Assembly (NCBI RefSeq): GCF_001017655.1
Contig: NZ_CP010904.1
Location: 960,001 to 992,000, forward strand
Reading direction: 5' to 3'
Length of the DNA stretch: 32,000 nucleotides
Origin: Kiritimatiella glycovorans
GTDB taxonomy: Bacteria; Verrucomicrobiota; Kiritimatiellia; Kiritimatiellales; Kiritimatiellaceae
Shown here: positions 3,578 through 28,054 of the stretch, in pieces
Layout: every line of letters starts with the position of its first letter
Position numbering within the stretch: the stretch's first letter is position 1
Made by a program: the position numbers and the translations under genes
The notes under the pieces: generated by a model
The model's database searches: none
Seen by the model: the letters and a program-made list of their open reading frames with translations, nothing else
Told to the model about the DNA's origin: nothing

Positions 3578-6448
3578 ATGGTCTCCGTTCCCATGGAATC
3601 AGCAACAGGCAGTCAGGGAAGCCGCGTATGGAGGGGCGTTGCCGCCGCTCTGGTGTTCATCACGCTCGCCGTCTCCGCCGAAGCGCAGTCGGTTTCGAGC
3701 ATGTCGACCAGCCAGCTCATCTCGCAGGCGGAGTCGATGCTGGCGGAAAAAAGGTACGGTCAGCTTCCCGAATACCTGAATGAGATCATCACCCGTCTCA
3801 GCGAGATCGAGAGCGAGGATGCGCGCGGCACGCTGGACTTCGCACGCTTCCGGCTCGGCGAGGCGTACTTCTTCACCGAACAGTACGACAAGGCGGTCAC
3901 CACCTTTGAGACGTATCTCAAGGAGATGCCGAAGGGTCAATGGCGGCAGTCGGCCAGCATCTACACCGCCGAGGCCCACGCCATGCGGCAGAACTGGCAG
4001 GGGATTATCGATGCCCTCGAGCCCGTCATGGCCGAAGCCGCGGAGCTTTCCGAAAAGCGCAGACGACTCGCGAGCCTGCTGATCGGCCAGGCGAATTTCA
4101 AGCTGGAGCAGTGGGGCGAGGCCTATCCCGCGCTTCGCTACGCGATGGACCATGCCGAGCGCGATGAAGTGCGGCGCAATGCCACCGTGATGGCGGTCAC
4201 CTGTCTCGTGCGTCTCGACCGGTTCGACGAGCTCAGCCGCCTCCTGCCCAGGGTTTACCAGTCCGACGCCCGCTACGACGTGGCGCTGAATATCGCCCTG
4301 ATGGAAGGCGGGGCGCGCAAATACGACGCCGAGCAGTACATGGAGGCGCTGCTTCTCTACCGGCTCGTGTTCCTCAAGTCGGAACTGCTCGATCGCCTCA
4401 AGGCCGACATGGCCGCAAATAAAAAAATCGTGGAGGAAAAGTTCCGGGCCGGCGCGGGCAAGGATTACGATCGGTACAAAGAGCGCAAGCGGCGCGCGGA
4501 ACGGGAACTCGAAACGCAGCAGGAGCAGCTCCGGGAGCTGCAGGACATCCCCGATTACGATATCGATATCCGCATGCGCATCGCCCAGACCTACGACGGG
4601 ATGAAGCGTCACTGGCCCGCCTACCTGCTCTACCGTTCCATCTACCGCAACCACCCCGACCACCAGCTCGCCGAGACCGCGCGCTATGCGACGTTTTCCT
4701 CTCTGCTCGGCCTGAAGCTCGAAGAGCGCGCCGTCGAGGAGGGCATCGCCTATCTGGACGATCATCCGCGCGGCGAATACTGGGAGCAGGTTTCGCTCAA
4801 TCTTACGCGCCTGCACATGAAGAACGGCGACTTCGAGCGGGCTTTGGCGATGGCGGGGCGCGCCCTGGAGGAACGCCCGCGGCATTCCGACCGCGACGAG
4901 CTGCTCTACCTGACGGGCTTCAGCCATTTCAAGCAGGGCGATTACGAGAAGGCGATCGGGCAGTTCGCGGAGGTCAGCGAAGATCACCCCGGCAGCTCGT
5001 TCGCCGAACCCGCCGGGTACTGGCACGGGATGTGTCTGCTCTACCGCGGCAAATATCCGGAGGCGCGTGCGCAATTCGCTTCGTTCATCGACACCTACCC
5101 CGACAGCCGGTTCGCGCAGGACGCCACCTACCGCCTGGGCGTCTGTTATTACGGCGAGGGCGAGATCGAACAGGCGGAGGAAACCTTCTCGCAGTTCATC
5201 GAGAAGTATCCGCTCAGCGACCTGCTCTCCGAGGCCTACGCCATGCGCGCCGATATCGAAGCCTCCCGCGGCGAGGTCGAGGCCGCGTACGAGGATTACG
5301 TCAAGGCGCGCGAAAACGCGAAACACGCCTACCAGGTCAGCTATGCCGTCTTCCGCAGCGCGAAGCTGTACGAGATGGAAGGCCGCTACGAAGAGATCAT
5401 CGAGATCATGAACGGCTACCTGGAGCGCTGGGGCGAGGAAGCGGATGTCGCCGAGGCGGCGTACTGGATCGGCAAGGCGCGCCGTGAGCAGGGCAATCCG
5501 GCCGGGGCGCTGGAGGCCTATCTCGACGCGATTACGCGCTTCGGCGACGATCAGAGCAATTACGGCGTGGACCTGATCATCGACGATATCGTCAACCGCA
5601 CATCCGAGTTCGAGGGCAGCGAGGGTTATGAGCAATTCCTCAGGGAACTGGAATTCAAACTCCGCCGCATGGGCGGGGACAAGAGGACGCTGAAACTGCG
5701 GCTGCAGACGCTTTTCGCTCAGACCACCGACTCGGACGACAAACGCGAACAGTATATGCAGCAGATCCTGCAGCCGGAGCTGATCGACGAGGCCGCCCCG
5801 TCCACGCTCGCGCTCATGAGCCGTGCCGCCTATGCGCGCGGGAAGTACGACCTGGTGCAGAAGGCCTACACCGAGTTCAGGGAGCGGCACGAGGCCTCGG
5901 ATCTCTTCCTCGATGCCATGCTCGCCCGCGCGGGCGTCCACATGGTGGACGAGGAATTCGACAAGGCGGAACCGCTGCTGAACGACATCCTCGACCGCTA
6001 CGGGTACGTCGCCGACACCGGCGAGGCCCAGAAGATGCTGGCCGATGTCTACCGGGAGAAGGGCCAGTACGAACAGGCCGTCGAGAATTATAAGAAGATC
6101 TTCTCCGTCCCGGCCTGGGGTGGCGAGATGAAGCCCGAGGCCCTGTACTGGATGGGTGTCAGCCACTTTGAAAACGGTGACGTGCGCAAGGCGTTCGGCT
6201 TCTTCCAGCGCGTGTACGTGCTGTACGAAGCCTATCCCCAGTGGGCGGCGCGGGCCTACCTCAAGAGCGCGCGCTGTCTCAAAATTATGGGCAAACAATC
6301 CGAGGCCCTCGCCACGTACAGGGAAATGCTGAACAAGCGTGAAGTCTACGCCGGACTGCCTGAGTACGAGGAGGCGCTGGAGCTGCGGGACGAGCTGCAG
6401 GCCGAGCTGCCGGAGTCGACGGCTGAAGAGGCGTCGGAGGAATCGTAA
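3578..6448 (+). CDS. Large secreted tetratricopeptide-repeat (TPR) protein, first gene of the ExbBD-associated cluster
   Basis: 956 aa. Signal-peptide-like N-terminus (VAAALVFITLAVSAEA/QS). Many TPR-like helix pairs recur (e.g. LGEAYFFTEQYDKAVTTFETYL, YLTGFSHFKQGDYEKAIGQF, YRLGVCYYGEGEIEQAEETF, YWMGVSHFENGDVRKAFGFF). A charged coiled-coil-like segment sits around KERKRRAERELETQQEQLRELQ. The start is uncertain (ATG 3578 or 3593; neither has a clear SD). Confidence 0.85.
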   Translation: MVSVPMESATGSQGSRVWRGVAAALVFITLAVSAEAQSVSSMSTSQLISQAESMLAEKRYGQLPEYLNEIITRLSEIESEDARGTLDFARFRLGEAYFFTEQYDKAVTTFETYLKEMPKGQWRQSASIYTAEAHAMRQNWQGIIDALEPVMAEAAELSEKRRRLASLLIGQANFKLEQWGEAYPALRYAMDHAERDEVRRNATVMAVTCLVRLDRFDELSRLLPRVYQSDARYDVALNIALMEGGARKYDAEQYMEALLLYRLVFLKSELLDRLKADMAANKKIVEEKFRAGAGKDYDRYKERKRRAERELETQQEQLRELQDIPDYDIDIRMRIAQTYDGMKRHWPAYLLYRSIYRNHPDHQLAETARYATFSSLLGLKLEERAVEEGIAYLDDHPRGEYWEQVSLNLTRLHMKNGDFERALAMAGRALEERPRHSDRDELLYLTGFSHFKQGDYEKAIGQFAEVSEDHPGSSFAEPAGYWHGMCLLYRGKYPEARAQFASFIDTYPDSRFAQDATYRLGVCYYGEGEIEQAEETFSQFIEKYPLSDLLSEAYAMRADIEASRGEVEAAYEDYVKARENAKHAYQVSYAVFRSAKLYEMEGRYEEIIEIMNGYLERWGEEADVAEAAYWIGKARREQGNPAGALEAYLDAITRFGDDQSNYGVDLIIDDIVNRTSEFEGSEGYEQFLRELEFKLRRMGGDKRTLKLRLQTLFAQTTDSDDKREQYMQQILQPELIDEAAPSTLALMSRAAYARGKYDLVQKAYTEFRERHEASDLFLDAMLARAGVHMVDEEFDKAEPLLNDILDRYGYVADTGEAQKMLADVYREKGQYEQAVENYKKIFSVPAWGGEMKPEALYWMGVSHFENGDVRKAFGFFQRVYVLYEAYPQWAARAYLKSARCLKIMGKQSEALATYREMLNKREVYAGLPEYEEALELRDELQAELPESTAEEASEES

Positions 6449-6451
6449 GTT

Positions 6452-7300
6452 ATGCGTTTTAAGCGGATGGTATGGTGTGGAGTGCTGATGGCGGCTGCGG
6501 CGGTGACGGCGCAGGATGAGCCTCTGGCGCGCATGACGCTGCAGAGCGGGAAGAAGTGGGTGGTCTATCTCCAGGGGCGCAAGGGCGATGTGCTCGAGAT
6601 GCGCCGCAAAGGCGATCAGAACGCGATCCAGATGCCCGCTTCCGCCTTCAGCGAAATGGAATTCCGCATCGAGGTGGACCTCGAAGAGGCCCGCGACTGG
6701 TATCGCAAAGGGGAATTCGACCGCATTCGCCAGGAAGTGGGCGGTCTGATCGAGGAACGACTTCCCTATCTCGATATCCCCAACAATCTTACGCCGTACT
6801 CGATTCTCATGCTCAAGGCGAACTACTGGGACGGGCATTACGATGAAGTCGTGGAGTCCGCGGAACGGTTGAGCGAGTCGCTCGACGACGACGTGCGCAG
6901 GACCGCGGAGGGATTCCGCGCCCTCACGCACCTGGAGCGCGAGGAGACCAACGACGCCCGCCGCATTATCGAGAAGCTCGACATCCGCGAGGATGCGGAG
7001 GGACAGGGTGCCATGGACTGGTATCTGCTCTCGCTCTACAGGCAGCAGCGCGGCGAACTGATTTCCTCTCAGGAAACCGTCGCGCACGTGGTGGCCTTTC
7101 ATCCGCGCGATTTCGAGTGGATGCCGGCCGCCCTTCATCATTCGGCCGAGTTGTACGGACTTTCCGATGACTTCAACGCGGCCGACCGCGTCATCGCGGA
7201 AGTGCGGACGTTCTTCGGTCATACATTCTGGAGCAACCGGGTGGATTCACTCCAGACCCGGTTGCGTGAACTCGAACGTGAAGCCATGAAATCGGAGTGA
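6452..7300 (+). CDS. Secreted hypothetical protein (helical, TPR-like C-terminal half)
   Basis: 282 aa. Starts 3 nt after the TPR gene stop. Signal peptide MRFKRMVWCGVLMAAAAVTA/QDE. I recognise no family. Coding is supported by position in the operon and non-shadow amino-acid composition. Confidence 0.7.
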   Translation: MRFKRMVWCGVLMAAAAVTAQDEPLARMTLQSGKKWVVYLQGRKGDVLEMRRKGDQNAIQMPASAFSEMEFRIEVDLEEARDWYRKGEFDRIRQEVGGLIEERLPYLDIPNNLTPYSILMLKANYWDGHYDEVVESAERLSESLDDDVRRTAEGFRALTHLEREETNDARRIIEKLDIREDAEGQGAMDWYLLSLYRQQRGELISSQETVAHVVAFHPRDFEWMPAALHHSAELYGLSDDFNAADRVIAEVRTFFGHTFWSNRVDSLQTRLRELEREAMKSE

Positions 7301-7340
7301 CGAGACAACGTCTCAGGGAGTAACCCGGAGAAGGAGTGCC

Positions 7341-8150
7341 ATGTACAAGACGAAAGATACCCGACGGATGACGAAAGCGTTCTTCGCCGTGATGGCCCTG
7401 GTCCTGTTTGCGGCGGCAGCGGCCTGGGCGCAGGAGGAGGGCGCGGCGGCCGAAGATCCCGAAAAGATGCTGACGCTCTGGGACATGATCAAGGCCGGCG
7501 GCTGGGCGATGGTCCCGCTGCTGCTCTGCTCGCTCGCCACGGTCACGTTCATCGTCCAGAACGCCCTCGTGCTGAGCGAGAAGAAAATGCTGCGCCCGGA
7601 CCTCGTGCCCGGCCTGAAGCGCAAAATGGCCGACAAGGATCTCGCCGGCGTGAAGGAAGTCTGCAGCAGCGAACGTTCCCTGCTCACCGATGTGCTCGGG
7701 GCGGGTCTTGAGCGGTGCGGCGGAGCGGACGACCTCGAGATGGAAAACGTCAAAGAGGCTATTGACGAGGCCGGAACCGAACAGATGGCCACCTACATGA
7801 AACCGATCAACTACCTCTCGATCATCGGCGCGGTCTCGCCGATGCTCGGACTGCTCGGTACGGTGATCGGTATGGTCAAGGCGTTCCAGACGATCGGCAC
7901 CCAGGGGATGGGCCGGCCCGAAATGCTGGCGGCCAATATCGGGGAGGCCCTCATCACGACGGCCACGGGCCTGATCATCGCCATTCCCGCCATGCTGTTC
8001 TATTTCTTTTTCCGCAACAACTTCACCAAGTATATGGCCACGATGGGGCGCACCGTGGGCGGCATGCTCGACGCGCTGTGCACCGGCCGCGTTCCGGAAG
8101 AGGAGGGACTCGAGGAAGCCGCCGCGGAGGGCGAAACGGAGACCGCGTAA
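7341..8150 (+). CDS. exbB: MotA/TolQ/ExbB family proton channel
   Basis: 269 aa. Family signature SPMLGLLGTVIGMVKAFQ ... NIGEALITTATGLIIAIPAMLFYFFFRN. N-terminal signal-like segment (LFAAAAAWA/QEE). SD GAAGGAG lies 5 nt upstream. Confidence 0.9.
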   Translation: MYKTKDTRRMTKAFFAVMALVLFAAAAAWAQEEGAAAEDPEKMLTLWDMIKAGGWAMVPLLLCSLATVTFIVQNALVLSEKKMLRPDLVPGLKRKMADKDLAGVKEVCSSERSLLTDVLGAGLERCGGADDLEMENVKEAIDEAGTEQMATYMKPINYLSIIGAVSPMLGLLGTVIGMVKAFQTIGTQGMGRPEMLAANIGEALITTATGLIIAIPAMLFYFFFRNNFTKYMATMGRTVGGMLDALCTGRVPEEEGLEEAAAEGETETA

Positions 8151-8189
8151 CGGCGGAACAACCCCGGCCGGAGCAGCGGAGAGGATGCT

Positions 8190-8597
8190 ATGAAATTCAC
8201 GATGCCCAAAGGAGAAGAGGCCGAGGTGCAGATGGCACCGATGATCGATATGGTGTTTCTGCTGCTCATCTTCTTTATGGTGGCCTCTCAGCTCAACGAG
8301 ATGAACAAGATCGACGTCGACCTGCCCGTGGCCGAGGATTCGGCCATACCGGAAGACCAGTCGGGGCGGCGGCTGATTTCGGTCAAGGAGACCGGACAGG
8401 TCTTCGCCGGACTGAATCCGGTGTCGCTGGAACGGCTTACCGAAATCGTGAAGCAGGAACTGGAGATTAATCCGCAGGTCCGCTTCTTCATCCGCGCCGA
8501 CGAACAGGTGCGCCACGGTGAAGTGAAAAAAGTGATGAAGACCTGCGCCGAGGCCGGGGCGGCCGACCTCATCTTCGCGACCTACCAATCGGAGTAA
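8190..8597 (+). CDS. exbD: ExbD/TolR family biopolymer transport protein (copy 1)
   Basis: 135 aa. N-terminal membrane helix MAPMIDMVFLLLIFFMV keeps the conserved intramembrane Asp. C-terminal periplasmic domain ends ...IRADEQVRHGEVKKVMKTCAEAG. SD GGAGAGGA upstream. Confidence 0.9.
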   Translation: MKFTMPKGEEAEVQMAPMIDMVFLLLIFFMVASQLNEMNKIDVDLPVAEDSAIPEDQSGRRLISVKETGQVFAGLNPVSLERLTEIVKQELEINPQVRFFIRADEQVRHGEVKKVMKTCAEAGAADLIFATYQSE

Positions 8598-8603
8598 CGC
8601 GGC

Positions 8604-9035
8604 ATGGATATTCGTGAAATGCTCGATGAGAAGCCGGAGCTGCAGATCGCGCCGCTGATCGATGTGGTCTTCCTGCTGCTCATCTACTTCATGGTCAGCG
8701 CCTCGCTCATCAAACAGGAGGCCGAACTCGGGGTGACCCTGCCCGGCAAGGTCGAGCAGACCGAAGAAGTCGAGATGCCCGACGAGCAGGTGATCATGAT
8801 CAACGGCTCGGGCAAGGTGCTGCTCAACAATCGCGAATACGGCAATGTCGACTCCCGCGAAATGCCCGAGCTGGTGGCAACGCTCGGCCGCTACCGCCAG
8901 GCGTCAGAGGCCCTCAACACCAAGGCTTTCGTGACGGTCCAGGCGGCGGATGAGGCGCTCCACCAGCGGGTGGTCGATGTGATGAACGCCTGCGCCGCGG
9001 CGGGGATCAAAAACCTTACATTCGGTATTCAGTAA
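8604..9035 (+). CDS. exbD: ExbD/TolR family biopolymer transport protein (copy 2)
   Basis: 143 aa. IAPLIDVVFLLLIYFMV helix keeps the intramembrane Asp. C-terminal ...VQAADEALHQRVVDVMNACAAAGI. Only a 6-nt gap from copy 1. Confidence 0.9.
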   Translation: MDIREMLDEKPELQIAPLIDVVFLLLIYFMVSASLIKQEAELGVTLPGKVEQTEEVEMPDEQVIMINGSGKVLLNNREYGNVDSREMPELVATLGRYRQASEALNTKAFVTVQAADEALHQRVVDVMNACAAAGIKNLTFGIQ

Positions 9036-9038
9036 TCC

Positions 9039-10352
9039 ATGGCCAAAATACGCCGAAGAAAATATAAAAAGACGCACTGGACCCGGAATGCCGCGCTCGT
9101 CAGCATGATCATCCATGCGCTGTTCCTCTTCACCGCCGGATCGATCGTGGCGGTCAAGGTGTTCAAGCAGGCGGAGACGACCTTCGAGGGCTCGAATCGC
9201 GAACGCCCGAAGATGGAGCTGCGCCAGCTCAAGATCCCGGTCACCGTAAAAAATATGCAGCGGCGCAGCAGGCGCCCCGCGGTTCAGGTGCAGCCCCGCC
9301 TGGCGGCGCGCACGGTGGCGGAGCAGAAGATGCCCGATATCAGCCTCCCGAGCCGCGGTCTATCCGGCGACCTGGCCGGAGGTATGGATCTGGGCGGGAG
9401 CGTGGAAGGACTCGGCACCTCGGGCGGAAGCCTCGGATTCGGCATCTCATCGATCAATTTCTTCGGGGTGAAATCCGAGGGGGAACGAGTGATGTTCCTT
9501 ATCTCGGCCCACAATTCGATGATGCTCGATGAACGCGGCGGGATCCCGGCCTACACGAAGGTCAAGGAAGAGATCGTGCGCCTGATCAGAGGCATGTCGC
9601 CCGCGACCGTGTTCAACGTCGCGGTGTTCTCAGGCCACCGGGTCAACATGTTCGCCCAGGAGATGGTGCCGGCGACCGAGCCCAACCGTGACCGCGTCGC
9701 CTCCTGGTTTGCGCAGTTCAACACGTCCCACGACCAGCGCGGCACCCGAGGAAATAACTACCGCCCCTCGCGCACCTTCGAGCCGATCGGCGAACACATC
9801 GTCCATCAGACCCGCGCTCTGATGTCGGCCTTCGAGCAGCAGGCGGACTCGATCTTCATGATCGCGGCCGAGCGCTGGTCCCTCCGCGTGGAGATGACCG
9901 AGGAGGAGCGCATTGAATACCGTGATGACCGCGGCTGGGACCAGGAGCGCCTGAAACAGTGGCGTGAAGTATTCATCCCGCGGGCCCGGAAGGAACTGGA
10001 GCGGATCAACAGAGAGCGGCAGAAGAAAGGTCTTCCCCCCGCCGTTTACCGTCATCTTCCCCACTTTATCCACGAACGCTGGCCGAATAGAGAGCAGCCC
10101 CCTGCGTTCCCTCACTATTCCCAGGACGATCAGGAAGAGACGATCGAAAATGCCGTGATCAGTCACTATCGGCGCGAAGGCCTCGACAAGCCCTCCGTCA
10201 ATATTATCCTCTTCCGCGGGAAAGATGAGGAAATGGACCGTAAGTCCCGGATCGACGCGGATTTCTTCGACGAGATCACGCAGGATTACCGCGGCACCTT
10301 CCGCGTCCTGGAAGGGCTGGAAGGGATCGATTACGAGATGACCGACGACTGA
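9039..10352 (+). CDS. Membrane-anchored protein: TonB/TolA-like N-terminal helix plus degenerate vWA-like periplasmic domain (paralog A)
   Basis: 437 aa. Starts 3 nt after the exbD2 stop. Basic N-terminus, then one hydrophobic helix NAALVSMIIHALFLFTAGSIVAV (S22-x3-H26). Arg/Pro/Gly-rich linker follows. The block FFGVKSEGERVMFLISAHNSMM...VKEEIVRLIRGMSPATVFNVAVF...ADSIFMIAA...SVNIILFRG resembles the strand pattern of a vWA fold, but SAHNS replaces the DxSxS MIDAS. Confidence 0.8.
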   Translation: MAKIRRRKYKKTHWTRNAALVSMIIHALFLFTAGSIVAVKVFKQAETTFEGSNRERPKMELRQLKIPVTVKNMQRRSRRPAVQVQPRLAARTVAEQKMPDISLPSRGLSGDLAGGMDLGGSVEGLGTSGGSLGFGISSINFFGVKSEGERVMFLISAHNSMMLDERGGIPAYTKVKEEIVRLIRGMSPATVFNVAVFSGHRVNMFAQEMVPATEPNRDRVASWFAQFNTSHDQRGTRGNNYRPSRTFEPIGEHIVHQTRALMSAFEQQADSIFMIAAERWSLRVEMTEEERIEYRDDRGWDQERLKQWREVFIPRARKELERINRERQKKGLPPAVYRHLPHFIHERWPNREQPPAFPHYSQDDQEETIENAVISHYRREGLDKPSVNIILFRGKDEEMDRKSRIDADFFDEITQDYRGTFRVLEGLEGIDYEMTDD

Positions 10353-10502
10353 GCCGCCGGCTATGCCGTGCGGCCGGGATGCTCCTGAACAGGGGTCTGA
10401 AGAGGGTAGCCCGCCGCTTTTATCTGGTCTGGTCCCACCTCCATCCGGCATACTCGCCGACATCTTTGAGGCGTTACGGACAGGTTCCCCCCGGAGACGA
10501 AC

Positions 10503-11825
10503 ATGGGTTTGATGGACCGCATAAAGGGCGTTAAAAACCAGGGCCGACCTCACTGGACACGCAATGCCGCGCTGGTGAGTTTGGCGGTGCACGCGCTGCT
10601 TCTGCTGGCCGCGGGATCGATCGTCGCCGTCAAGGTCTACAAGCAGCAGCAGACCACCTTTGTGGGCGGTGACCGCGAGCGTCCGCGGCTGGAGCTGCGC
10701 AAACTCCGCATCCCCATCACGGTCAAGAACATGCAGCGCCGCAGCGCGCGCCCCTCCGTCCAGATCAATCCCCGCCTGGCGGCCCGGACCATGGCGGACC
10801 AGGCCATGCCGGACGTGAGCATGCCCGCGCGCGAACTCGGGGGGGACATGCTCTCCGGGCTCGACCTCGGGGGCGGCGGCGTCGAAGGACTGGGCACCGG
10901 AGGCGGGAGCCTCGGCTTCGGGATCTCGTCGGTCAATTTTTTCGGGGTGAAATCCGAGGGCGAGCGGGTGATGTTCCTCGTCTCCACGTGGAGCGGGATG
11001 ATGGTCGACGATCGCGGCGGGATCCCGGCCTACACCAAGGTCAAAGAGGAAATCGTACGCCTGATCAACGGTATGTCCCCCGCCACGGTGTTCAACGTGG
11101 CGATGTTCGACATCAACAAGGTCAATATGTTCTCGCGTGATATGGTCCCGGCCACAAAGGACAACCGTCGCCGGGTTTCGGACTGGATCGAACCGTTCAA
11201 TACGGAATACGGTCAGCGAGGCGCGCGCGAAAACAACTTCTATCCGCGCCGCACCTACGAGCCCGTAGGAGAGGACATCTGTCATCAGACGAAAGCCCTG
11301 CTCGCGGCGTTTGAGCAGCAGGCGGACTCGGTCTTCATGATCATCGCCGACCGGTGGTCGAAGCGTGAACCGATCACCGAGGAGGAACTGGTCGATTTCT
11401 GGGAGGACCACGGCTGGTCGGTGGAGGAGCAGCAGCACTGGGAGGATGTAATCGTTCCGCGCGTCCAGGATGAACTGGAGCGGATCAACCGAGACAGGAA
11501 GAAAAAGGGTCTTCCTCCCAAGGTGATCCGGCACACCTACGAGTTTGTAGGCGAGCGGTGGCCGGACATGGAGCGCCCCCCCATCCCGCCTCACTACGAC
11601 GAGGAGCAGCAGCTCGAGACGCTCGAGGAGGCGGTGATCTATAACTTCCGGCGCGAGGGGCTGGGCATCCCGTCCGTGAATATCATTCTCTTCCGCGGCG
11701 AAGACGAGGACCTCGATCGGCGCGATCAGCGCACGGCCGCGTTCTTCGACGACATCAGCGACGAGTTCAAGGGCCGTTTCCGCGTGCTCGAGGGGCTTGA
11801 GGCGATCGAGTATGACTATGAATGA
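10503..11825 (+). CDS. Membrane-anchored protein: TonB/TolA-like N-terminal helix plus degenerate vWA-like periplasmic domain (paralog B)
   Basis: 440 aa, colinear with paralog A over the full length. Helix NAALVSLAVHALLLLAAGSIVAV (S26-x3-H30). Core FFGVKSEGERVMFLVSTWSGMM has STWSG in the MIDAS position. SD GGAGAC lies upstream after a 150-nt spacer. Confidence 0.8.
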   Translation: MGLMDRIKGVKNQGRPHWTRNAALVSLAVHALLLLAAGSIVAVKVYKQQQTTFVGGDRERPRLELRKLRIPITVKNMQRRSARPSVQINPRLAARTMADQAMPDVSMPARELGGDMLSGLDLGGGGVEGLGTGGGSLGFGISSVNFFGVKSEGERVMFLVSTWSGMMVDDRGGIPAYTKVKEEIVRLINGMSPATVFNVAMFDINKVNMFSRDMVPATKDNRRRVSDWIEPFNTEYGQRGARENNFYPRRTYEPVGEDICHQTKALLAAFEQQADSVFMIIADRWSKREPITEEELVDFWEDHGWSVEEQQHWEDVIVPRVQDELERINRDRKKKGLPPKVIRHTYEFVGERWPDMERPPIPPHYDEEQQLETLEEAVIYNFRREGLGIPSVNIILFRGEDEDLDRRDQRTAAFFDDISDEFKGRFRVLEGLEAIEYDYE

Positions 11826-11951
11826 GCATGATGAATTCGCGGGCATGGGCGTCTATTCGCTTCACACCGAAAACATTTAACGGGCGAACCGCCAATGGAC
11901 GCAGATCCACGCGAATAATTCTGGGGCTGCTCAGGGTTTCCGCTCAGCGTT

Positions 11952-12824
11952 TCAGATCGACGATCCTCTCCAGTGGAGTTTCTGGCTGAGCAGTTTGAAG
12001 TAGCTGTATTCTTCCAGGTGGACGAAACGGACGCCGCATTTCGCGCGGCGCACATGCAGGGTGCAGCCGGGGGTGATGTCTCCGGGGTGATCGCGCCCGT
12101 CGATTGAAAGCACGAGGGGCTTGGCCGACTCACCCACCCGGATTGAAATCGTGCTCCGGTCCGGGATGACCAGCGGGCGGCTGCTCAGGGTGTGGGGGCA
12201 GATCACGTTGATCGCGAACACGGGCGAGCCGGGGTAGAGGATCGGTCCGCCCGCGGAGAGCGAATGCCCCGTGCTTCCCGTGGGCGTCGACACGATCAGA
12301 CCGTCGCACATGAACGTGGCGATGTGTTCCCCGTCCACGCTGAGATCGAGCGAGACGATGCTCGACGAAGCGCCCCAGCCGACCACCACGTCGTTCAGCG
12401 CGCGCGCGCGGGCGGGCTCGTCGTCGCCGGGCACTTCAAGTTCGCAGGCGAGGGCGGCGCGTTCCTCGATTGTGCAGGCCCCCTCGCAGAGGGCGTCGAC
12501 GGCCTGTTCCACCGCCTCTTCGCCCACCGTGGTCAGAAATCCGAGGCTGCCGAGGTTGAGTCCCAGGATCGGCGTATCCGAACCGCACAGGAGGCGTGCC
12601 GCGTAGAGCACCGTGCCGTCCCCGCCCATCGCGAACAGGACATCCGCGCGCCGGGCCAGGTCCCCGGCCGGCACGGATTCGGCCGCCGCCATGCATGCTG
12701 CCGTATCGGGGTCTGCCAGCAGGGCCAGTCCGCGCTCTGCCGCACGGGTCTCGAGCCGGCCGAGCACGGATTCCGCGTCGGCGCGCTGCAGGTTCGCTAC
12801 AATACCGATGCTCTCAGGCTTCAT
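11952..12824 (-). CDS. nadK: NAD(+) kinase
   Basis: Motifs GGDGTVLYAARL, NLGSLGFLT, ALNDVVV and STPTGSTGHSLSAGGPI. I place the start at ATG 12824 (MKPESIGIV...), preceded by GGGAGGGGGAG, not at the track's 12983, which would run through the tlyA 3' end. Overlaps the tlyA stop by 11 nt. Confidence 0.9.
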   Translation of the reverse strand: MKPESIGIVANLQRADAESVLGRLETRAAERGLALLADPDTAACMAAAESVPAGDLARRADVLFAMGGDGTVLYAARLLCGSDTPILGLNLGSLGFLTTVGEEAVEQAVDALCEGACTIEERAALACELEVPGDDEPARARALNDVVVGWGASSSIVSLDLSVDGEHIATFMCDGLIVSTPTGSTGHSLSAGGPILYPGSPVFAINVICPHTLSSRPLVIPDRSTISIRVGESAKPLVLSIDGRDHPGDITPGCTLHVRRAKCGVRFVHLEEYSYFKLLSQKLHWRGSSI

Positions 12825-13596
12825 CTCCCCCTCCCTTTGCGGTCGTGTCCTGCGCGTGGTCGCCCTCCAGCGTCCACAGGGCCAGGTATTCGACATTCCC
12901 CGCGGGGCCGCGCACCGGCGAAGGCACGCAGTCGATCCAGCGGCAACCGGGCTGATCCTGACCGAAACGCCGGACGCGTTCAATGGTATCCTTCCGGACC
13001 GACTCGTCGCGCACGACGCCGCCGCGCGCGACCTGACCGCGACGCGCCTCGAATTGCGGCTTGATCAGGGTGACCATCCACGTGCCGGGCGAGGCGAGGG
13101 GGATGACCGCGGGCAGAATAAGGGTCAGCGAGATAAAGGAGACGTCCACGCAGATGAACCCCACCCGTTCCGGGAGGGCGTCCGGTTGCAGGTAGCGGGC
13201 GTGGACGCGTTCCATGACGACCACGCGCGGGTCCTGCCGGAGCCGATAGTCGAGCTGGCCGTAGCCGACATCCACGGCGTACACGCGCCGTGCGCCGTGC
13301 TGGAGCAGGCAGTCGGTGAACCCGCCGGTCGAGGCGCCGACATCCAGCGCCGTGCGGTCCGTGACCTCGAGGTCGAACGCGTGCAGCGCATGTTCCAGTT
13401 TGTAGGCGCCGCGCCCGACGTACCGCTCGCGCGCGGCGACCTCGATCTCCGCGTCCGGCATGACGGGCCGTCCCGGTTTTGTGACCGGGACGCCTCCGAC
13501 CCTGACCTCGCCGGCGATGATGAGGCGCCGGGCCCGCTCCCGGCTCTGCGCCAGCCCCCGTTCGACGAGAAGTTGATCAAGACGCGGTTTTTTCAT
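12814..13596 (-). CDS. tlyA: TlyA family 16S/23S rRNA (cytidine-2'-O)-methyltransferase
   Basis: S4-like N-terminus MKKPRLDQLLVERGLAQSRERARRLIIAGEVRV. SAM motif ALDVGASTGGFTDCLLQHGARRVYAVDVGYGQL. Start chosen at ATG 13596 (the family-typical N-terminus). The tlyA-nadK adjacency is a widely conserved synteny. Confidence 0.9.
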   Translation of the reverse strand: MKKPRLDQLLVERGLAQSRERARRLIIAGEVRVGGVPVTKPGRPVMPDAEIEVAARERYVGRGAYKLEHALHAFDLEVTDRTALDVGASTGGFTDCLLQHGARRVYAVDVGYGQLDYRLRQDPRVVVMERVHARYLQPDALPERVGFICVDVSFISLTLILPAVIPLASPGTWMVTLIKPQFEARRGQVARGGVVRDESVRKDTIERVRRFGQDQPGCRWIDCVPSPVRGPAGNVEYLALWTLEGDHAQDTTAKGGGDEA

Positions 13597-13651
13597 ACCA
13601 TGCCGTGTTCGAAAGACTGAATCGCTATTACGCAACGGACGGAAGCATAGC

Positions 13652-14773
13652 ATGCCCGGACTCTACATTCACATCCCCTTCTGTCTGCGGAAGTGCCCGT
13701 ACTGCGACTTCTATTCGATCCCGCTCCGGGACGGACGCATCGCGGATCGGTACCTCAACGCGCTCGGGCGGGAACTGCGCCTGCTGGCCGCGGAGTTCAG
13801 GCCCGCGACGGTCTACGTCGGAGGAGGGACGCCGACCGCGCTCGAACCCGAACAGCTCCGCCGCCTCTTCCGGATGCTGCACGAACACGCCGGGGCGGCC
13901 GATGCGGAGGAGGTTACCTGCGAGGCGAATCCCGGCACGATGGAGCGCGAGACGCTCGATGCGCTCCTCGAGTCGGGGGTCAACCGGATCTCGGTCGGAG
14001 TGCAGTCATTCTGCAACGCCGCGCTCAAGAAACTGGGGCGGGTGCACAGCGCGGAACAGGCGTGGGAAGCCTGCCGCCGGGCGCGCTCGGCGGGGTTCGG
14101 CAACATGAGCATCGACCTCATCGGCGCCGTGCCGGGCGTCCGCAGGCGGGACCTGCGCGAGACGGTCGACAGGGTGCTGGACCTGCGGCCGGAGCATATC
14201 TCCTTCTACCTGCTCAGCTTCGAGGAGGGCACGCTGTTTCACCGGCTGCGGGAACGGGGCGCGATCGCGGAATGCGAAGAGGAGGAACAGGTCCGGCGGT
14301 TCGATTATGTGCGCGGAAAGCTTCGCCGCACCGGGTACCGTCATTACGAAATATCGAACTTCGCCGTCCCGGGGTTCGAAAGCCGGCACAACCTCCTGTA
14401 CTGGGACGGGGAGGCCTATGCCGGCTGCGGAGCGGCGGCCCATTCCTTCCTGCAGGGCGAGCGTCGCGCCAACGTGCGCGACCTGGAAACCTATCTCCGG
14501 AGGCTGGAGGAAGGGGCTGCGCCGGTCGCCGAAAGCGATGTGATCCGGCCCGAAGCCCGGGCCCGCGAGCTGCTGGTCATGGGCCTGCGCAAGATCGGCG
14601 GCGTCGAGCGCGAGACCTTCCGGGAAACGACCGGCTACGACTACTGGAGTCTCTGCGGGCCGGAAATCACCGACCTCGCGCGCCGGAATCTGCTGGAGGT
14701 CGACCGCGAACGGATACGCCTGACCGGCGAAGCGCTGCTGATCAGCGACACCGTTTTCGCAGAGCTCATCTGA
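13652..14773 (+). CDS. hemW: Radical SAM family heme chaperone HemW / HemN-like oxygen-independent coproporphyrinogen oxidase homolog
   Basis: 373 aa. Begins LYIHIPFCLRKCPYCDF (CxxxCxxC radical-SAM cluster motif), followed by GGGTP and the HemN-C-like tail. Divergent from tlyA across a 55-nt spacer. Confidence 0.9.
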   Translation: MPGLYIHIPFCLRKCPYCDFYSIPLRDGRIADRYLNALGRELRLLAAEFRPATVYVGGGTPTALEPEQLRRLFRMLHEHAGAADAEEVTCEANPGTMERETLDALLESGVNRISVGVQSFCNAALKKLGRVHSAEQAWEACRRARSAGFGNMSIDLIGAVPGVRRRDLRETVDRVLDLRPEHISFYLLSFEEGTLFHRLRERGAIAECEEEEQVRRFDYVRGKLRRTGYRHYEISNFAVPGFESRHNLLYWDGEAYAGCGAAAHSFLQGERRANVRDLETYLRRLEEGAAPVAESDVIRPEARARELLVMGLRKIGGVERETFRETTGYDYWSLCGPEITDLARRNLLEVDRERIRLTGEALLISDTVFAELI

Positions 14774-14784
14774 GCGTTTTTTGC

Positions 14785-14813
14785 TTGTTTATGCCGGCCC
14801 GTTCCCGTATGAA
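14785..14813 (+). promoter_or_regulatory. Candidate sigma-70-type promoter for rpmB (TTGTTT, 17-nt spacer, TATGAA)
   Basis: TTGTTT at 14785-14790, a 17-nt spacer, then TATGAA at 14808-14813, about 45 nt upstream of the rpmB ATG. This is a motif match only, and the promoter consensus of this lineage is unknown to me. Confidence 0.3.
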
Positions 14814-14857
14814 TGCCCGTTCCACGGAAGACGTTCAGAACGCAGAGGGATCTGATT

Positions 14858-15085
14858 ATGGCCAAAGTATGTGAACATTGCGGCAAGGGTCCGACTACGG
14901 GCAACCGCATTATACGCAAGGGTTTAGCTAAAAAGAAGGGCGGCATCGGGCTGCACACGACCGCCGTGACGCGGAGGCGGTTCATGCCGAACCTCCAGAA
15001 AATCCGGGTCCGCGAGAACGGCGGGGTTGTGACGCGCCGGATCTGCACCGCCTGTATCCGGGCGGGCCGGATCGAAAAGGCGTGA
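14858..15085 (+). CDS. rpmB: 50S ribosomal protein L28
   Basis: 75 aa from ATG 14858 (MAKVCEHCGKGPTTGN...RRRFMPNLQKIRV...), preceded by AGAGGGA. Two CxxC pairs (CEHC and CTAC) suggest the zinc-ribbon form. The track's 14813 start adds a non-family N-terminal extension. Confidence 0.9.
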   Translation: MAKVCEHCGKGPTTGNRIIRKGLAKKKGGIGLHTTAVTRRRFMPNLQKIRVRENGGVVTRRICTACIRAGRIEKA

Positions 15086-16513: not shown

Positions 16514-16924
16514 ATGAATAAAGACGAAAAGGCCCGACACGACGATCAGGTCGAATGCGCCTTTCTCGAAGCCGTCGCCCGGCGGCTTCCCATGGACGAT
16601 GAGGTGCTCCGTCCGCTGGCCGAAGCCTATACCCGGCTGGGAGACTACGGGTCCGGGCTCGGCGTGGACCGGCAACTGGCCCGTCTCTGCCCCGAAGATC
16701 CGCTCGTCTGGTATAACCTGGCCTGCAGCCATGCGCTGCTCGGCGCGGTCGACGAGGCCGTGGCCGCACTCGGACGGGCGGTGGAAATCGGCTACGACGA
16801 CTACGACTGGATGAAACAGGACCGGCACCTCGATCCGCTGCGCGACGACCCGCGCTTTCAGTCGCTGCTCGAATGGGTGTACGCCTACGGCGACGACGAA
16901 GAGGAGTCGTACGAGGAGTTCTAG
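16514..16924 (+). CDS. Small TPR-like protein
   Basis: 136 aa. TPR-type segment LVWYNLACSHALLGAVDEAVAALGRAVEIGYDDYDWMKQDRHLDPLRDDPRFQSLL, typical of a TPR end-of-group domain. Acidic tail. Confidence 0.7.
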   Translation: MNKDEKARHDDQVECAFLEAVARRLPMDDEVLRPLAEAYTRLGDYGSGLGVDRQLARLCPEDPLVWYNLACSHALLGAVDEAVAALGRAVEIGYDDYDWMKQDRHLDPLRDDPRFQSLLEWVYAYGDDEEESYEEF

Positions 16925-17799
16925 GTCTCCACCCCGAGTCCCGCCCGGATCGCGATTCCGACCAGGAAACTCACGGCGGCCACGCCGAGGCTGAGCAGAC
17001 TCATCTCCGTGAAACGGGCGCGGAAGGGTTCGTCGTTGGCTACGGATAGGTAGTAGTTGAACAGGGCGATGATCCCGAGGGCCTCCGCCAGCACGAAGGC
17101 GAGGCAGACCCCGTAGTGCCCGAACACGAGGTAGGGCAGAATCAGCAGCGCCACGGTGATGAAATAGGCGGTGCCGGTGTACAGCGCGGCCTTGACCGGC
17201 CGGCGATCCTGACGTTCCGCCTTGGCCGAGAGGTACTCGGAGGCCGCCATCGACAACGCAGCGGCAAAACCGGTGATCGATCCGCTCAACGCGATGAGTT
17301 CGGTGTTGCGCAGGGCGAAGGAGAGACCGGCGAGCGCCCCGGTCAGTTCAACGAGCGCGTCGTTGAGCCCGAGCACCACCGATCTTATGTAGCGCAGCCG
17401 CTCCTCGTCGATCATCCTGAGCAGCTTTTCCTCGTGCCCCTCCTCGTCGTGAAAGACGCGCTCGGCGTCGCGGATCTTCCCCGCCAGTTCCTCGTAGTGG
17501 TCCTGGGCGTCGTCCTCGTTGCGCTCCATCAGCTTGATGCCGAAGGTCAGCCCGAACACGCGGCTGATCCACGTGTAGAACAGCACCCGCTTCCGGTCGG
17601 GCTCGACGTCCTCACCGGTATAGTTCTTCCAGAGCTCGTAATGCTCCTTTTCGTCGTCGGCGATGCGCCGGAGCACCTCCGCGTTTTCCGAAGCGGACGG
17701 AAGCTCCGCAAGGGACTGGTAGATATGATATTCCGTGATTTCGTTGCGCTGGAATTTCAGCAGCAGCGCCCGCGTCGAGGGGTCTGTCGTCGTCTGCAT
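16921..17799 (-). CDS. VIT1/CCC1 family iron/manganese transporter with N-terminal ferritin-like domain
   Basis: 292 aa. N-terminal ferritin/rubrerythrin-like helices (NEITEYHIYQ..., DEKEHYELW, DEEGHEEKL). C-terminal VIT membrane domain (GLNDALVELTGALAG..., SMAASEYLS...). SD AAAGGAG upstream. Confidence 0.85.
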   Translation of the reverse strand: MQTTTDPSTRALLLKFQRNEITEYHIYQSLAELPSASENAEVLRRIADDEKEHYELWKNYTGEDVEPDRKRVLFYTWISRVFGLTFGIKLMERNEDDAQDHYEELAGKIRDAERVFHDEEGHEEKLLRMIDEERLRYIRSVVLGLNDALVELTGALAGLSFALRNTELIALSGSITGFAAALSMAASEYLSAKAERQDRRPVKAALYTGTAYFITVALLILPYLVFGHYGVCLAFVLAEALGIIALFNYYLSVANDEPFRARFTEMSLLSLGVAAVSFLVGIAIRAGLGVET

Positions 17800-18012
17800 G
17801 CCGTGCTCCTTTAGCGTGCCCCAGGCTCTGCTCCATTCCCGCGCGGCGCCGCTTCAGCTTCCCCGGAACCGGAATCGGGAACGCGGCCGACCGCCTTTTA
17901 TCTTGCCCGTACTGCGCACGTTCTTATCATGGGCCTTTCGAGACGTGCAATCACCGATGCCGACCCCGCTCCGCAGGCGGGAGTGGCGTCCATCAACGAA
18001 AGGATATCCATC

Positions 18013-19095
18013 ATGGCCAGAGTCTACAATTTCAGTCCCGGACCGGCGACGCTCCCCGAGGAGGTGCTGAAGGAAGCCCAGACGCAGCTCGCGGATTACA
18101 AGGGCAGCGGGATGTCGATCCTCGAATCCAGCCATCGCGGCAAAGAATATTCCGCCGTGCACGAGGAGGCCCGCAGCAATATCGCCGAACTGCTGAACCT
18201 TACGGAGGACTACGCCGTGCTCTTTATGTCCGGCGGGGCGAGCACGCAATTCGCGCTGGCGCCGATGAACCTGATGGGCGAGGGCGGCCGCGCGGATTAC
18301 GTCGACTCCGGATCGTGGTCGACCAAGGCGATCAAGGAGGCACGGAAAATCGGGGAGGTCCATCTGGCCGCCGACGTCAAGGACGCTTCGCCCGCGCGGA
18401 TGCCGAAGCCGGAGGAACTGACCCTGGATCCCGGCGCCGCCTACCTGCACCTGACGAGCAACGAGACCATCGCCGGGACGCAGTGGAAGACCTTCCCGGA
18501 TACCGGCGAGGTGCCGATCGTGGCCGATATGTCCTCCGACATCTGTTCGCGCACGTTCGACGTGAACCCCTTCGGCCTGATCTACGCCGGCGCACAGAAA
18601 AACCTGGGCCCCGCGGGGGTCACCATCGTCGTCATCCGCCGGGACCTGGCCGAGCGCGCGGCAGGACACCTTCCGACGCTGTTCCAGTACCGCACGTTCG
18701 TCGAAAAGGACTCGCTGGCGAACACGCCGCCGGTGTTCCCGATCTATATCGTGTCGCTGGTGACGCGCTGGCTGCTGGATAAGGGCGGGATCGCCGGGAT
18801 CGAGCAGCAGAACCGCGACAAGGCGGCCAAACTCTACGCGGCGATCGATGGCTCGGACTTCTACCGGGGCACCGCGGCTGCGGATTCGCGCTCGGATATG
18901 AACGTCACCTTCCGCCTGGCCGAAGAGGAACTCGAAAAGACCTTCATCGAAGAGGCCGCCCGGCAGGGCATGAAGGGCCTGAAAGGACACCGCTCGGTCG
19001 GCGGCGTCCGCGCCTCGATCTATAACGCCTTCCCGGTCGAAGGCGTCGATGCGCTGGTCGACTTCATGAAGGAGTTCGAGAAGAAAAACGGGTAA
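18013..19095 (+). CDS. serC: Phosphoserine aminotransferase
   Basis: 360 aa from ATG 18013 (MARVYNFSPGPATLPEEVL, SHRGKEY, GAQKNLGPAGVT). GAAAGGA lies upstream. The track's 17929 start adds a non-homologous extension. Confidence 0.95.
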   Translation: MARVYNFSPGPATLPEEVLKEAQTQLADYKGSGMSILESSHRGKEYSAVHEEARSNIAELLNLTEDYAVLFMSGGASTQFALAPMNLMGEGGRADYVDSGSWSTKAIKEARKIGEVHLAADVKDASPARMPKPEELTLDPGAAYLHLTSNETIAGTQWKTFPDTGEVPIVADMSSDICSRTFDVNPFGLIYAGAQKNLGPAGVTIVVIRRDLAERAAGHLPTLFQYRTFVEKDSLANTPPVFPIYIVSLVTRWLLDKGGIAGIEQQNRDKAAKLYAAIDGSDFYRGTAAADSRSDMNVTFRLAEEELEKTFIEEAARQGMKGLKGHRSVGGVRASIYNAFPVEGVDALVDFMKEFEKKNG

Positions 19096-26424: not shown

Positions 26425-28044
26425 ATGAGTGACACGCCCGTAAAAGCGAACCGGCGGCCGGAGTGGAAGGCGCTCGCATCTCACGCGGAAACCATGAAGG
26501 CCGTCCACCTCCGCGAGCTGTTCAGCCACGACCGGGGCCGCGCCTCCCGTTTCACGCTCGAAGCCTGCGGCCTCACGCTCGACTACTCCAAGAACCGCAT
26601 CACCGACGAGACCCGCGAGCTTCTGCTCAAGCTGGCGGAGGCCGCCGGGGTGCCGGAAGAGGCCGACGCGATGTTTCGCGGCGAGAAGATCAATCGCACG
26701 GAAAATCGCGCCGTGCTCCATACCGCCCTGCGCGCGCCGAAGGACGCCGAAGTCTTCGTCGACGGCCGGAATGTGATCCCGGAAGTGCATGAGGTGCTCG
26801 ACTGCATGAGCACGTTCGCGGAGCGGGTGCGGAGCGGCGAATGGCGCGGGGCGACGGGAAAACCCGTCCGGAATATCGTCAATATCGGGATCGGGGGTTC
26901 CGACCTCGGGCCGGCGATGGCCACCGATGCGCTGCGTCCCTGGGTGCGCGAGGACCTGAACGTGCGGTACGTCTCGAACGTGGACGGCGCGCATCTCTTC
27001 GACGCGCTGCGCGGACTCGACCCGGCGGAGACGATGTTCGTCGTGGCGTCCAAGACCTTCACCACGCTCGAGACGATGAGCAACGCCATCTCTGCCCGCA
27101 CCTGGATGCGCGAGGCCCTGGGCGGCGACGCGGGAGGGCATTTCGTCGCCGTCAGCGCCGCCCCGGAGAAGGCCATCGAGTTCGGAGTCCCCGAAGATCA
27201 GATCTTCGGGTTCTGGGACTGGGTGGGAGGACGCTACTCGCTCTGCTCGGCGATCGGCCTGCCGCTGATGCTCGCCATCGGACCGGAGGCCTTCCGGTCG
27301 ATGCTCGGCGGATTCCGCGAGATGGACGAGCATTTCCGCGGCGCGCCGCTCGATTCGAACATGCCGGTGATCCTCGCGCTGCTCGGGGTCTGGTACAACA
27401 ATTTCTTCGGCGCGGAGACGCACGCGATCCTTCCCTACGCCCAGCGGCTGCACCGGTTCGCCGCTTACTTCCAGCAGGGCGATATGGAGAGCAACGGCAA
27501 ATCGGTAGACCGGGAGGGACGGCCCGTGGAGTGGGAGACCGGCCCCGTCATCTGGGGCGAGCCGGGCACCAACGGTCAGCACGCCTTCTTCCAGTCGATC
27601 CACCAGGGCACCAGGCTCGTGCCGGGCGATTTCATCGGTTTCTGCCGCAGCCGCGACACGTATCCCGGTCACCAGGACAAACTGATGGCCAACTGTTTTG
27701 CCCAGACCGAGGCGCTCGCCTTCGGACGGACCCGGGAAGAGGTCGAGGCCGAAGGCGTGCCCGAACACCAGGTGCCGTATCGGGTATTCGAGGGCAACCG
27801 TCCGACGAATACCATCCTCGCCGACGAACTCGATCCGCCCGCGCTGGGGCGCCTGATCGCCCTCTACGAGCATAAGATCTTCACTCAGGGCGTCCTCTGG
27901 GATATCTACTCCTTCGACCAGTGGGGGGTTGAACTGGGCAAAAAACTTGCAAAGACCCTGCTCGCGGAGTTTGAGGGCGAACCCGGCGGACACGACGGGT
28001 CGACCGACGCACTCGTGCGACGTTACCTGGACAGACGCCGATGA
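26425..28044 (+). CDS. pgi: Glucose-6-phosphate isomerase
   Basis: 539 aa from ATG 26425 (GAAAGGA upstream). Contains [31 protein letters not shown] and [13 protein letters not shown]. The track's TTG start at 26320 adds a non-homologous extension. Confidence 0.95.
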
Positions 28045-28054
28045 CCGGGAGGCG

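Follow-up and report, generated by a model that had tools for sequence, protein, structure and literature searches.

What does a proton-driven envelope motor pull on when the proteins encoded beside it carry neither a TonB nor a TolA domain? To our knowledge, Ton and Tol were for long the sole cases in which a tethered transducer lets a 5:2 proton motor pull on the outer envelope. If there is a third type of transducer head, the 5:2 motor has been re-used for another task. The question is raised by a cluster of seven genes in the window analysed here, a 32,000 nt stretch of the Kiritimatiella glycovorans genome (contig NZ_CP010904.1, positions 960,001 to 992,000). We consider it highly probable that this cluster encodes a Ton/Tol-type machine, powered by the proton motive force (PMF), that belongs to the class of 'vWA force transducers', named for their von Willebrand factor type A (vWA) heads. 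K. glycovorans, a cultured species with a small genome, is a clean setting in which to look for whatever a vWA-headed transducer pulls, as it reportedly has tolB-pal but neither tolA nor polysaccharide TonB-dependent receptors.

The cluster occupies window positions 3578–11825. Its seven open reading frames (ORFs) are all on the plus strand, with intergenic gaps of 3, 40, 39, 6, 3 and 150 nt, and lie exactly at the coordinates given in a first-pass annotation made from the sequence alone. That annotation had also named the tetratricopeptide repeat (TPR), ExbB and two ExbD proteins, identities that the Pfam matches bear out (TPR_6, MotA_ExbB, and ExbD twice). The order is a 956-aa TPR protein, a 282-aa small TPR protein, an ExbB/TolQ-like protein, two ExbD/TolR-like proteins, and two paralogous single-pass proteins. 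These genes, and the parts of the first transducer as seen in its AlphaFold2 (AF2) model, including a head that has lost its metal ion-dependent adhesion site (MIDAS), are as follows.

3578..6448, plus strand: periplasmic TPR protein, 956 aa, the first conserved gene (TPR_6, 8e-42, and many other TPR families of Pfam)
6452..7300, plus strand: small TPR protein, 282 aa, the second conserved gene (homologues at the same position)
7341..8150, plus strand: ExbB/TolQ-like motor subunit, presumed to form a pentamer (MotA_ExbB PF01618, 8e-31)
8190..8597, plus strand: ExbD/TolR-like subunit 1, membrane Asp20 (PF02472, 1.5e-28)
8604..9035, plus strand: ExbD/TolR-like subunit 2, membrane Asp20 (PF02472, 1.3e-19)
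9039..10352, plus strand: vWA force transducer 1, 437 aa, with anchor, linker and vWA head (homology to Tichowtungia aerotolerans Transducer 2)
9078..9164, plus strand: transmembrane helix of transducer 1, residues 14–42, with Ser22-x3-His26 (His codon 9114–9116; AF2 helix)
9174..9239, plus strand: candidate motor-box (D-box-like) region of transducer 1, residues 46–67 (conservation, position)
9441..10349, plus strand: vWA-fold head of transducer 1, residues 135–437, MIDAS lost (SAHNS) (AF2, Foldseek)
10503..11825, plus strand: vWA force transducer 2, 440 aa, tandem paralogue, with His30 (codon 10590–10592)

Why should the last two genes be regarded as transducers? Their products are 62–65% identical and each is the nearest relative of the other, as the first-pass annotation had recognised in calling them paralogues; the pair is a lineage-specific tandem duplication. 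Neither protein matched any Pfam or NCBIfam family, and no TonB_C (PF03544) or TolA domain was found in either at E ≤ 1, in line with what had been read from the translations. The evidence instead comes from the membrane anchor. In an alignment of 84 homologues, His26 of the transducer 1 helix is invariant and Ser22 is at least 90% conserved, the equivalents in transducer 2 being S26 and H30. When the helices are aligned on the histidine, these residues match S16/H20 of Escherichia coli TonB and S18/H22 of TolA. The helices read LLSVCI-H-GAVV in TonB, IISAVL-H-VILF in TolA, and LVSMII-H-ALFL and LVSLAV-H-ALLL in the window proteins. The shared serine and histidine are the SHLS residues by which TonB and TolA bind their motors (PMC12204202, cited throughout from parts of its text and supplement).

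Beyond the helix, conservation across the 84 sequences is complete or at least 90% at residues F49, R56, P57, L61–Q65 and P67. The juxtamembrane block R56-P57-x3-LKKLQ-x-P67 is flanked by prolines and alternates hydrophobic and polar residues, reading P57-KMELRQLKI-P67 in transducer 1. In TonB, the D-box P-ISVTMVT-P is captured by the ExbD dimer as a beta strand (PMC10907165). The position of this D-box, and that of the 'stator box' of Tichowtungia at residues ~55–60 (PMC12204202 supplement), is taken in the window protein by F49 and the P57...P67 block. We infer that residues 46–67 are a candidate motor box.

Transducer 1 was modelled with AF2 from the 84-sequence alignment, with a mean predicted local distance difference test (pLDDT) score of 79. 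Residues 70–131 form a low-confidence linker (pLDDT <50), and residues 135–437 have pLDDT ~84–98, mostly above 90, with a dip to 55–62 at residues 231–250. The linker, basic and rich in glycine, has few prolines and does not form a proline-rich rod. Foldseek comparison with the PDB gave top matches that are all vWA domains: ITIH1 (1e-6), alpha2delta, complement C2a, Rpn10 and TFIIH p44. The column of the MIDAS motif DxSxS reads SAHNS in transducer 1 and STWSG in transducer 2, and DxSxS is kept in some relatives. The MIDAS-less vWA fold suspected in the first-pass annotation is therefore confirmed by model, fold matches and motif alike. The transducers have the topology of TonB and TolA with a MIDAS-less vWA head. 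Across the family, mean pairwise identity is 68% for the N-terminal module (residues 1–69), 61% for the linker and 36% for the vWA head. The far better conservation of the N-terminal module suggests that the anchors share a conserved partner and that the heads have diverged in their targets.

Is this a new class of transducer? It is not: a class of vWA force transducers with TolA/TonB-like topology was described computationally in June 2025 (PMC12204202; Mol Biol Evol 2025;42:msaf138, Fig. 4a-b). In its members, a helix with the SHLS motif is followed by a disordered region that holds a motor box, and then by a C-terminal vWA domain; in an AlphaFold3 (AF3) model of a relative, the conserved His lies on the motor. 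The seed of the family was Tichowtungia aerotolerans (Kiritimatiellales), a species from a sister genus that is without recognisable TolA and TonB and for which the supplement shows two tandem transducers. The arrangement TPR-tolQ-tolR-tolR-vWA is described there as common in bacteria of the Planctomycetes-Verrucomicrobia-Chlamydiae (PVC) group, Verrucomicrobia included. In BLASTP the 9039–10352 product aligns with Tichowtungia Transducer 2, as transcribed from the supplement, over residues 8–437 with 33% identity (E 3e-70). Because this homology is full-length, we assign the window locus to the published class, of which it is a new, previously unrecorded member in a cultured species; the supplement's K. 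glycovorans entry gives tolB-pal and 'unable to annotate TolA', and does not record the cluster. Thus the part of the first-pass annotation that saw a non-canonical transducer holds, with a Ser-x3-His helix and a vWA head, and the part that offered a new transducer class does not. The published description also bears on one of the refuting conditions set in that annotation, namely a cluster already known as a characterised, named system.

The window and Tichowtungia systems are alike in the Ser/His helix and the vWA head, with a candidate motor box at the expected place in the window protein, and also in the genes, with a TPR protein, a tolQ-like gene, two heterologous tolR-like genes and two tandem transducers in both. 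They differ in that the window proteins have no MIDAS motif, and the small second TPR gene of the window cluster goes unmentioned in the available parts of PMC12204202. Those parts likewise make no mention of the multi-copy expansion, the sulfatase enrichment or the PA14-like-headed anchors described below; the term 'PA14' does not occur in them, and the 'paralog' passages they contain concern TonB.

Several points weigh against a Ton/Tol-type machine. The Leu and second Ser of SHLS are off the canonical spacing, with A33 and V37 instead. The AF2 monomer model predicts no strand in the motor-box region. A profile of the N-terminal anchor, run against the PDB sequence set at E ≤ 10, matched no TonB or TolA chain and nothing else; the 25-residue helix is too short for this test, and the TonB/TolA argument is one of motif, position and synteny. 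The family is known from computation alone, with no phenotype for any member: the function is stated in PMC12204202 to be unknown, no deletion phenotypes are given in the parts cited, and the name goes no further than 'vWA force transducers'. In addition, K. glycovorans is drawn in a 2016 paper with an outer-membrane receptor and an 'energization complex' that serve ferric siderophores (PMC5148204).

The receptor and energising complex drawn for this genome could mean that the motor serves a canonical TonB or TolA encoded elsewhere, and that the vWA proteins are uncoupled from it, being Bat-like or other anchored scaffolds that merely share the operon. Most family members in relatives are indeed not beside a motor, but tonB genes are likewise usually unlinked to exbBD. 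The combination of TPR and tandem membrane-anchored vWA proteins also recalls the BatA-BatE aerotolerance loci, an analogy drawn in the first-pass annotation, and the large TPR protein gives a weak BatC match (2e-7). That match is generic to TPR (30.7 bits against a cutoff of 175), the window contains no BatA N-terminal domain, MoxR ATPase or DUF58, and Bat loci have no ExbBD motor. The likeness is superficial, and we rejected it on domain content. The invariant His helix and the conserved juxtamembrane block would be hard to explain in uncoupled proteins, and Tichowtungia, with the same locus, is reported to be without TolA and TonB altogether (PMC12204202). We therefore judge uncoupling to be very improbable.

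If the transducers belong with the motor, the cluster should recur as a unit. One genome per species was scanned, giving 80 loci (loci are named here with the prefix L), and the ORFs of each locus were compared with the window proteins by BLAST. In L001, a Tichowtungia-like metagenomic contig, the order is TPR (936 aa), a 264-aa protein, ExbB, ExbD, ExbD and a transducer homologue (487 aa). The same six-gene order is found in the Kiritimatiellales loci L001, L039, L056 and L081 and in the Lentisphaerae/Victivallaceae loci L064, L071 and L080, so the recurrence in relatives on which the first-pass annotation had staked its reading extends to four Kiritimatiellales and three Lentisphaerae loci, the gene order being shared by 8 loci from two phyla in all. 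In L017, L020 and L046 the vWA gene is instead upstream of the TPR gene. The flanks vary by genome and include YidC, a Na/H exchanger, an M16 peptidase, phosphoglucomutase, dapF in the window and murB in L001, and no conserved outer-membrane partner gene was found beside the motor-linked clusters. Given these varying flanks, the conserved unit is TPR, small TPR, ExbB, ExbD1, ExbD2 and transducer(s), without an outer-membrane gene. We also considered whether the motor-linked transducers form one orthologous clade, and rejected this, as they do not group together.

In L020 (Kiritimatiellaceae), positions 16713–18554 encode a 613-aa protein directly after ExbD2 that has the same anchor and a PA14-like/SHD1 body. 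This implies that the slot after the motor is interchangeable.

The ExbB/TolQ-like subunit has an N-terminal signal-like extension and NCBIfam scores of 4e-23 for tolQ and 3e-19 for exbB, both under the curated cutoffs. None of the motor proteins reached the NCBIfam equivalog cutoffs for tolQ, exbB, tolR or exbD, and the motor is scored slightly better by the TolQ/TolR than by the ExbB/ExbD models. Both ExbD copies retain the membrane Asp (APMIDMVF and APLIDVVF), as had been noted in the first-pass annotation, and it aligns with D23 of E. coli TolR. ExbD1 and ExbD2 are only 33% identical to one another, compared with 41–45% between ExbD1 and its positional orthologues and 44–52% between ExbD2 and its own, Lentisphaerae L071 included. 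Because each is closer to its positional orthologue than to the other, the pair is ancient, the two genes forming separate orthologue groups conserved into the Lentisphaerae. Such an ancient pair would fit a heterodimeric stator.

How would these parts act together? The analysis shows what the domains are, along with the motifs, the fold, the synteny and the homology to the published family, whereas the steps proposed for docking, force transmission and the target are by analogy with TonB and TolA and with the published AF3 model of a relative (PMC12204202). The ExbB/TolQ-like ring would hold an ExbD1/ExbD2 heterodimer with a proton-binding Asp in each subunit, and proton flow would be converted to movement. 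The two tandem single-pass transducers would dock outside the ring through the TonB/TolA-type helix with its Ser22-x3-His26, and each would offer its conserved juxtamembrane strand region to the periplasmic domains of ExbD, to be gripped there. Movement would then pass along the ~90-residue linker, partly disordered and motif-bearing, and the MIDAS-less vWA head may grip a partner in the periplasm or outer membrane. TPR domains bind extended peptides and the linker has conserved linear motifs, which is why the likeliest role for the two secreted TPR proteins is that of adaptors or scaffolds, which may bind these motifs or link the head to its target.

Both TPR proteins have signal-peptide-like N-termini, judged by eye from the translations, as the first-pass annotation had them. 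The 956-aa protein contains YbgF/CpoB-type repeats (NCBIfam TIGR02795, 1.8e-51, 8 stretches), and its orthologues lie upstream of the motor in L001, L020, L039, L056, L081, L071, L080 and L064. The 282-aa protein has a small beta-rich N-domain followed by a short YbgF-like TPR/helical-repeat domain. It matched no Pfam or NCBIfam family above noise. TIGR02795 is matched by 7 of the 10 members of the small TPR family. Homologues occupy the same slot in six Kiritimatiellales loci, and the three Lentisphaerae loci have longer homologues of 397–419 aa that align along its length. An AF2 model of the 282-aa protein from three sequences, with beta strands and then helical repeats, is of low confidence (pLDDT 56) and was excluded from the fold search.

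Could the TPR genes instead mark the cluster as the Kiritimatiellota counterpart of the MUL1 mucin-utilisation locus of Akkermansia muciniphila, with its TPR protein Mul1A, Mul1B and their neighbours? Akkermansia is also a PVC bacterium in which a TPR protein and a small secreted protein have a role in bringing glycoprotein into the cell. Mul1A is described as a mucin transport gene, and MUL genes are required for intracellular mucin accumulation. The 282-aa protein weakly matches the Mul1B family NF052542 (E 0.014, residues 11–114), and the TPR-tolQ-tolR-tolR-vWA arrangement reaches the Verrucomicrobia (PMC12204202). However, the Mul1B match is a single marginal one, made by 1 of the 10 small TPR family members at 14.6 bits against a cutoff of 75; the Lentisphaerae homologues do not match Mul1B, and the large TPR protein matches no Mul1 model. 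A word-index protein search with the alignment of the small TPR family gave 3 proteins only. A Mul1 link is thus unproven from the sequences compared, and we think it improbable that the cluster is a MUL1 counterpart.

For the motor-linked copies of K. glycovorans our best guess is a Tol-like envelope job. We lean this way because TolQ/TolR models score slightly better, because both TPR proteins have YbgF/CpoB-type repeats, and because the genes are in a housekeeping setting in a genome reported to have tolB-pal without tolA (PMC12204202). The cluster thus resembles TolQ-TolR-TolA-TolB-Pal-CpoB in its marginally best motor scores, in having CpoB/YbgF-type repeats within the same operon, in being core, single-copy and placed among housekeeping genes, and in belonging to a species with tolB-pal and no identified tolA (PMC12204202). 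It differs in that the transducers have no TolA domain III, no tolB or pal is among the window genes (tolB-pal being reported at another locus; PMC12204202), and the TPR proteins, which precede the motor, either greatly exceed CpoB in size or differ from it in their N-domain. Three observations count directly against the Tol-like guess: there is no relationship between a vWA head and TolA domain III, tolB-pal is reported at a different place in the genome (PMC12204202), and the copies in relatives are multiple, dispersed and sulfatase-enriched, which looks substrate-specific rather than housekeeping.

The cluster also resembles TonB-ExbB-ExbD. Both have motor families of the 5:2 type with a membrane Asp, a single-pass Ser-x3-His transducer, a strand-like motif between prolines that lies close to the membrane, where TonB has its D-box, and, in relatives, transducers in multiple copies that are mostly unlinked to the motor. 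The window cluster differs in its ~300-residue vWA head without TonB_C or proline-rich rod, in having two different ExbD genes, and in the absence of a TonB-dependent receptor nearby. A third system, the TolQ-only 'trans-pore helix' vWA family of the Idiomarina type (PMC12204202 Fig. 4c-d), also joins a membrane-tethered vWA head with a TolQ-like protein. Proteins of that family stand in for ExbD/TolR and have the Asp within their own helix (PMC12204202), whereas the window has two ExbD genes and its vWA helices carry His, not Asp.

The dispersed copies in relatives deserve closer attention. There are at least 6 family loci on one contig of Pontiella sulfatireligans, at least 9 in Pontiellaceae B12227, and 5–6 in two other isolates; about 70 of the 80 loci have no motor within 10 kb. 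In L032 (Pontiellaceae B1224), positions 16714–19031 on the minus strand hold two adjacent ExbB-like ORFs and then one ExbD-like ORF. This distantly related second set is ~5 kb from a dispersed vWA gene, on the opposite strand, and implies that such genomes have more than one type of motor.

The anchor also occurs with other heads. A profile of the anchor alone, run against 1.84 billion representatives, found 395 proteins at E ≤ 1e-3 and 183 at E ≤ 1e-10, and it matches transducer 2 at 6.8e-36. The class of ~440 aa is the vWA class. In the class of ~380 aa, 9 of 12 members matched PA14 (best E 2e-5) and 4 matched GLEYA. The class of ~600–670 aa combines a PA14-like region with an SHD1 domain (3e-9) and one more region at the C terminus. 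When all loci were searched with the anchor profile, a second same-strand anchor gene was found within 8 kb in ~19 loci and directly adjacent in at least 10, the adjacent pair usually being a vWA gene and a PA14/SHD1 gene. Pairs of anchor genes are at the following positions of their loci.

L008 9983–13277; L028 3969–7173; L031 7875–11374; L053 9848–13247; L025 9971–13266
L024 162–5273; L014 9941–12470; L040 9950–12431; L088 9998–13121

The adjacency of vWA and PA14-like anchor genes suggests that the two may act together.

The neighbours of dispersed copies include sulfatases, carbohydrate-active enzymes (CAZymes), a fucosidase, glycoside hydrolases of families GH2, GH28 and GH95, a sialate esterase and PEP-CTERM proteins. 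PEP-CTERM sorting-signal neighbours are found in Pontiella-like genomes at L006 7147–8079 and 8177–8986 and at L088 2419–3351, and one of them ends ...PEPATIGLLAAFGGGLLLIRRRFMI. We first suspected that the sulfatase association was genome background only. Distance binning shows a modest but real local enrichment: within 1 kb of dispersed copies there are 1.43 sulfatase starts per 10 kb, as against 0.43–0.69 at 2–10 kb, or 19 observed where ~8 would be expected (~2.4-fold).

Does this point to a role in glycan capture? The motor might power interchangeable heads, vWA and PA14-like, that pull polysaccharide into the periplasm, or pull in a glycan-loaded outer-membrane or pilus component, giving a form of 'selfish' uptake independent of both TonB and SusC. 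Within this set of heads, the general-purpose members would be the motor-linked copies. The 5–9 or more copies per genome in relatives, mostly away from a motor, the ~2.4-fold sulfatase density, the CAZyme, PEP-CTERM, fucosidase, GH28 and sialate-esterase neighbours, and the fusion of the same anchor to PA14-like heads all speak for this, as does the reported absence of genes for TonB-dependent polysaccharide uptake in K. glycovorans (PMC5148204). A possible kinship with the Akkermansia MUL1 locus would point the same way. Yet the window transducers are among housekeeping genes rather than in a degradative locus, and they have lost the MIDAS site. The genomes of the relatives are extremely rich in sulfatases, so that the enrichment is modest, and no conserved outer-membrane partner lies beside any cluster. 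We hold glycan capture or import to be a tentative possibility for the cluster.

A broader version is that the anchor of His helix and motor box defines a modular superfamily with swappable heads and one shared TolQ/TolR-type motor, used for PMF-powered capture or import of polysaccharide. Its scope would be the Kiritimatiellota and Lentisphaerota, and perhaps other PVC bacteria, with vWA, PA14-like, and PA14-like plus SHD1 heads. We regard the superfamily reading, with this scope, as rather doubtful. The relatives are major degraders of sulfated algal polysaccharides. Were a modular superfamily of this kind real, it would supply the mechanism, long sought, by which PVC bacteria take up glycans in a 'selfish' manner without TonB or SusC. 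The expanded family, the PA14-like pairing and the sulfatase neighbours make a testable candidate for glycan transport across the PVC envelope without SusC/D.

vWA and PA14 are also classical adhesion domains, and the transducers might instead drive or unmask a cell-surface adhesin in a gliding-type system. PMC12204202 speculates along these lines by analogy with the Agl-Glt machinery and vWA adhesin of Myxococcus, and the small TPR family shows weak matches to gliding TPR proteins (GltE or GltC, one member each). These matches are generic to TPR and far under cutoff, the heads are not exported but stay attached to the inner membrane through a linker of only ~90 residues, and no Glt-like outer-membrane components lie beside the cluster. 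A role in adhesion or gliding seems to us quite improbable.

The remaining genes of the window are largely housekeeping genes. They encode an NYN domain protein, threonine synthase (thrC), dapF, NAD kinase, a HemN-like protein, citrate synthase, phosphoglucose isomerase and a tail-specific protease, plus one sulfatase. No mobility genes were found among the window genes, and this gene content supports the first-pass view of a lineage-core system rather than an island. The sulfatase gene (27929–29518; Sulfatase 1.6e-52, SGSH_C 2.5e-69) is beside the phosphoglucose isomerase gene, 16 kb downstream of the cluster. It does not adjoin the transducers, whereas sulfatases do in many Pontiella loci.

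A scan of the cluster for promoters and terminators gave the same counts as shuffled sequences, with no plus-strand terminator within the cluster. This is compatible with a single operon yet gives no evidence for one. The 150-nt spacer at 10353–10502, which separates the transducer genes, is the sole sizeable gap in the cluster. A weak promoter-like site is at 10183–10210, within the transducer 1 gene. The open frame of transducer 2 reaches upstream to 10470, and its true start codon is uncertain. In L001, two features adjoin the cluster that are not conserved elsewhere: a HepT/nucleotidyltransferase toxin-antitoxin pair upstream (1562–2183) and a 1120-aa FHA/YscD-like protein just downstream of the transducer (11707–15069). 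In the window, long antisense ORFs on the minus strand overlap the cluster at 3599–7222 (1207 aa), 7191–8588 (465 aa) and 9630–11846 (738 aa). These are taken as by-products of composition, because the family matches and conserved homologues are on the sense strand and the G+C content there is 61–64%.

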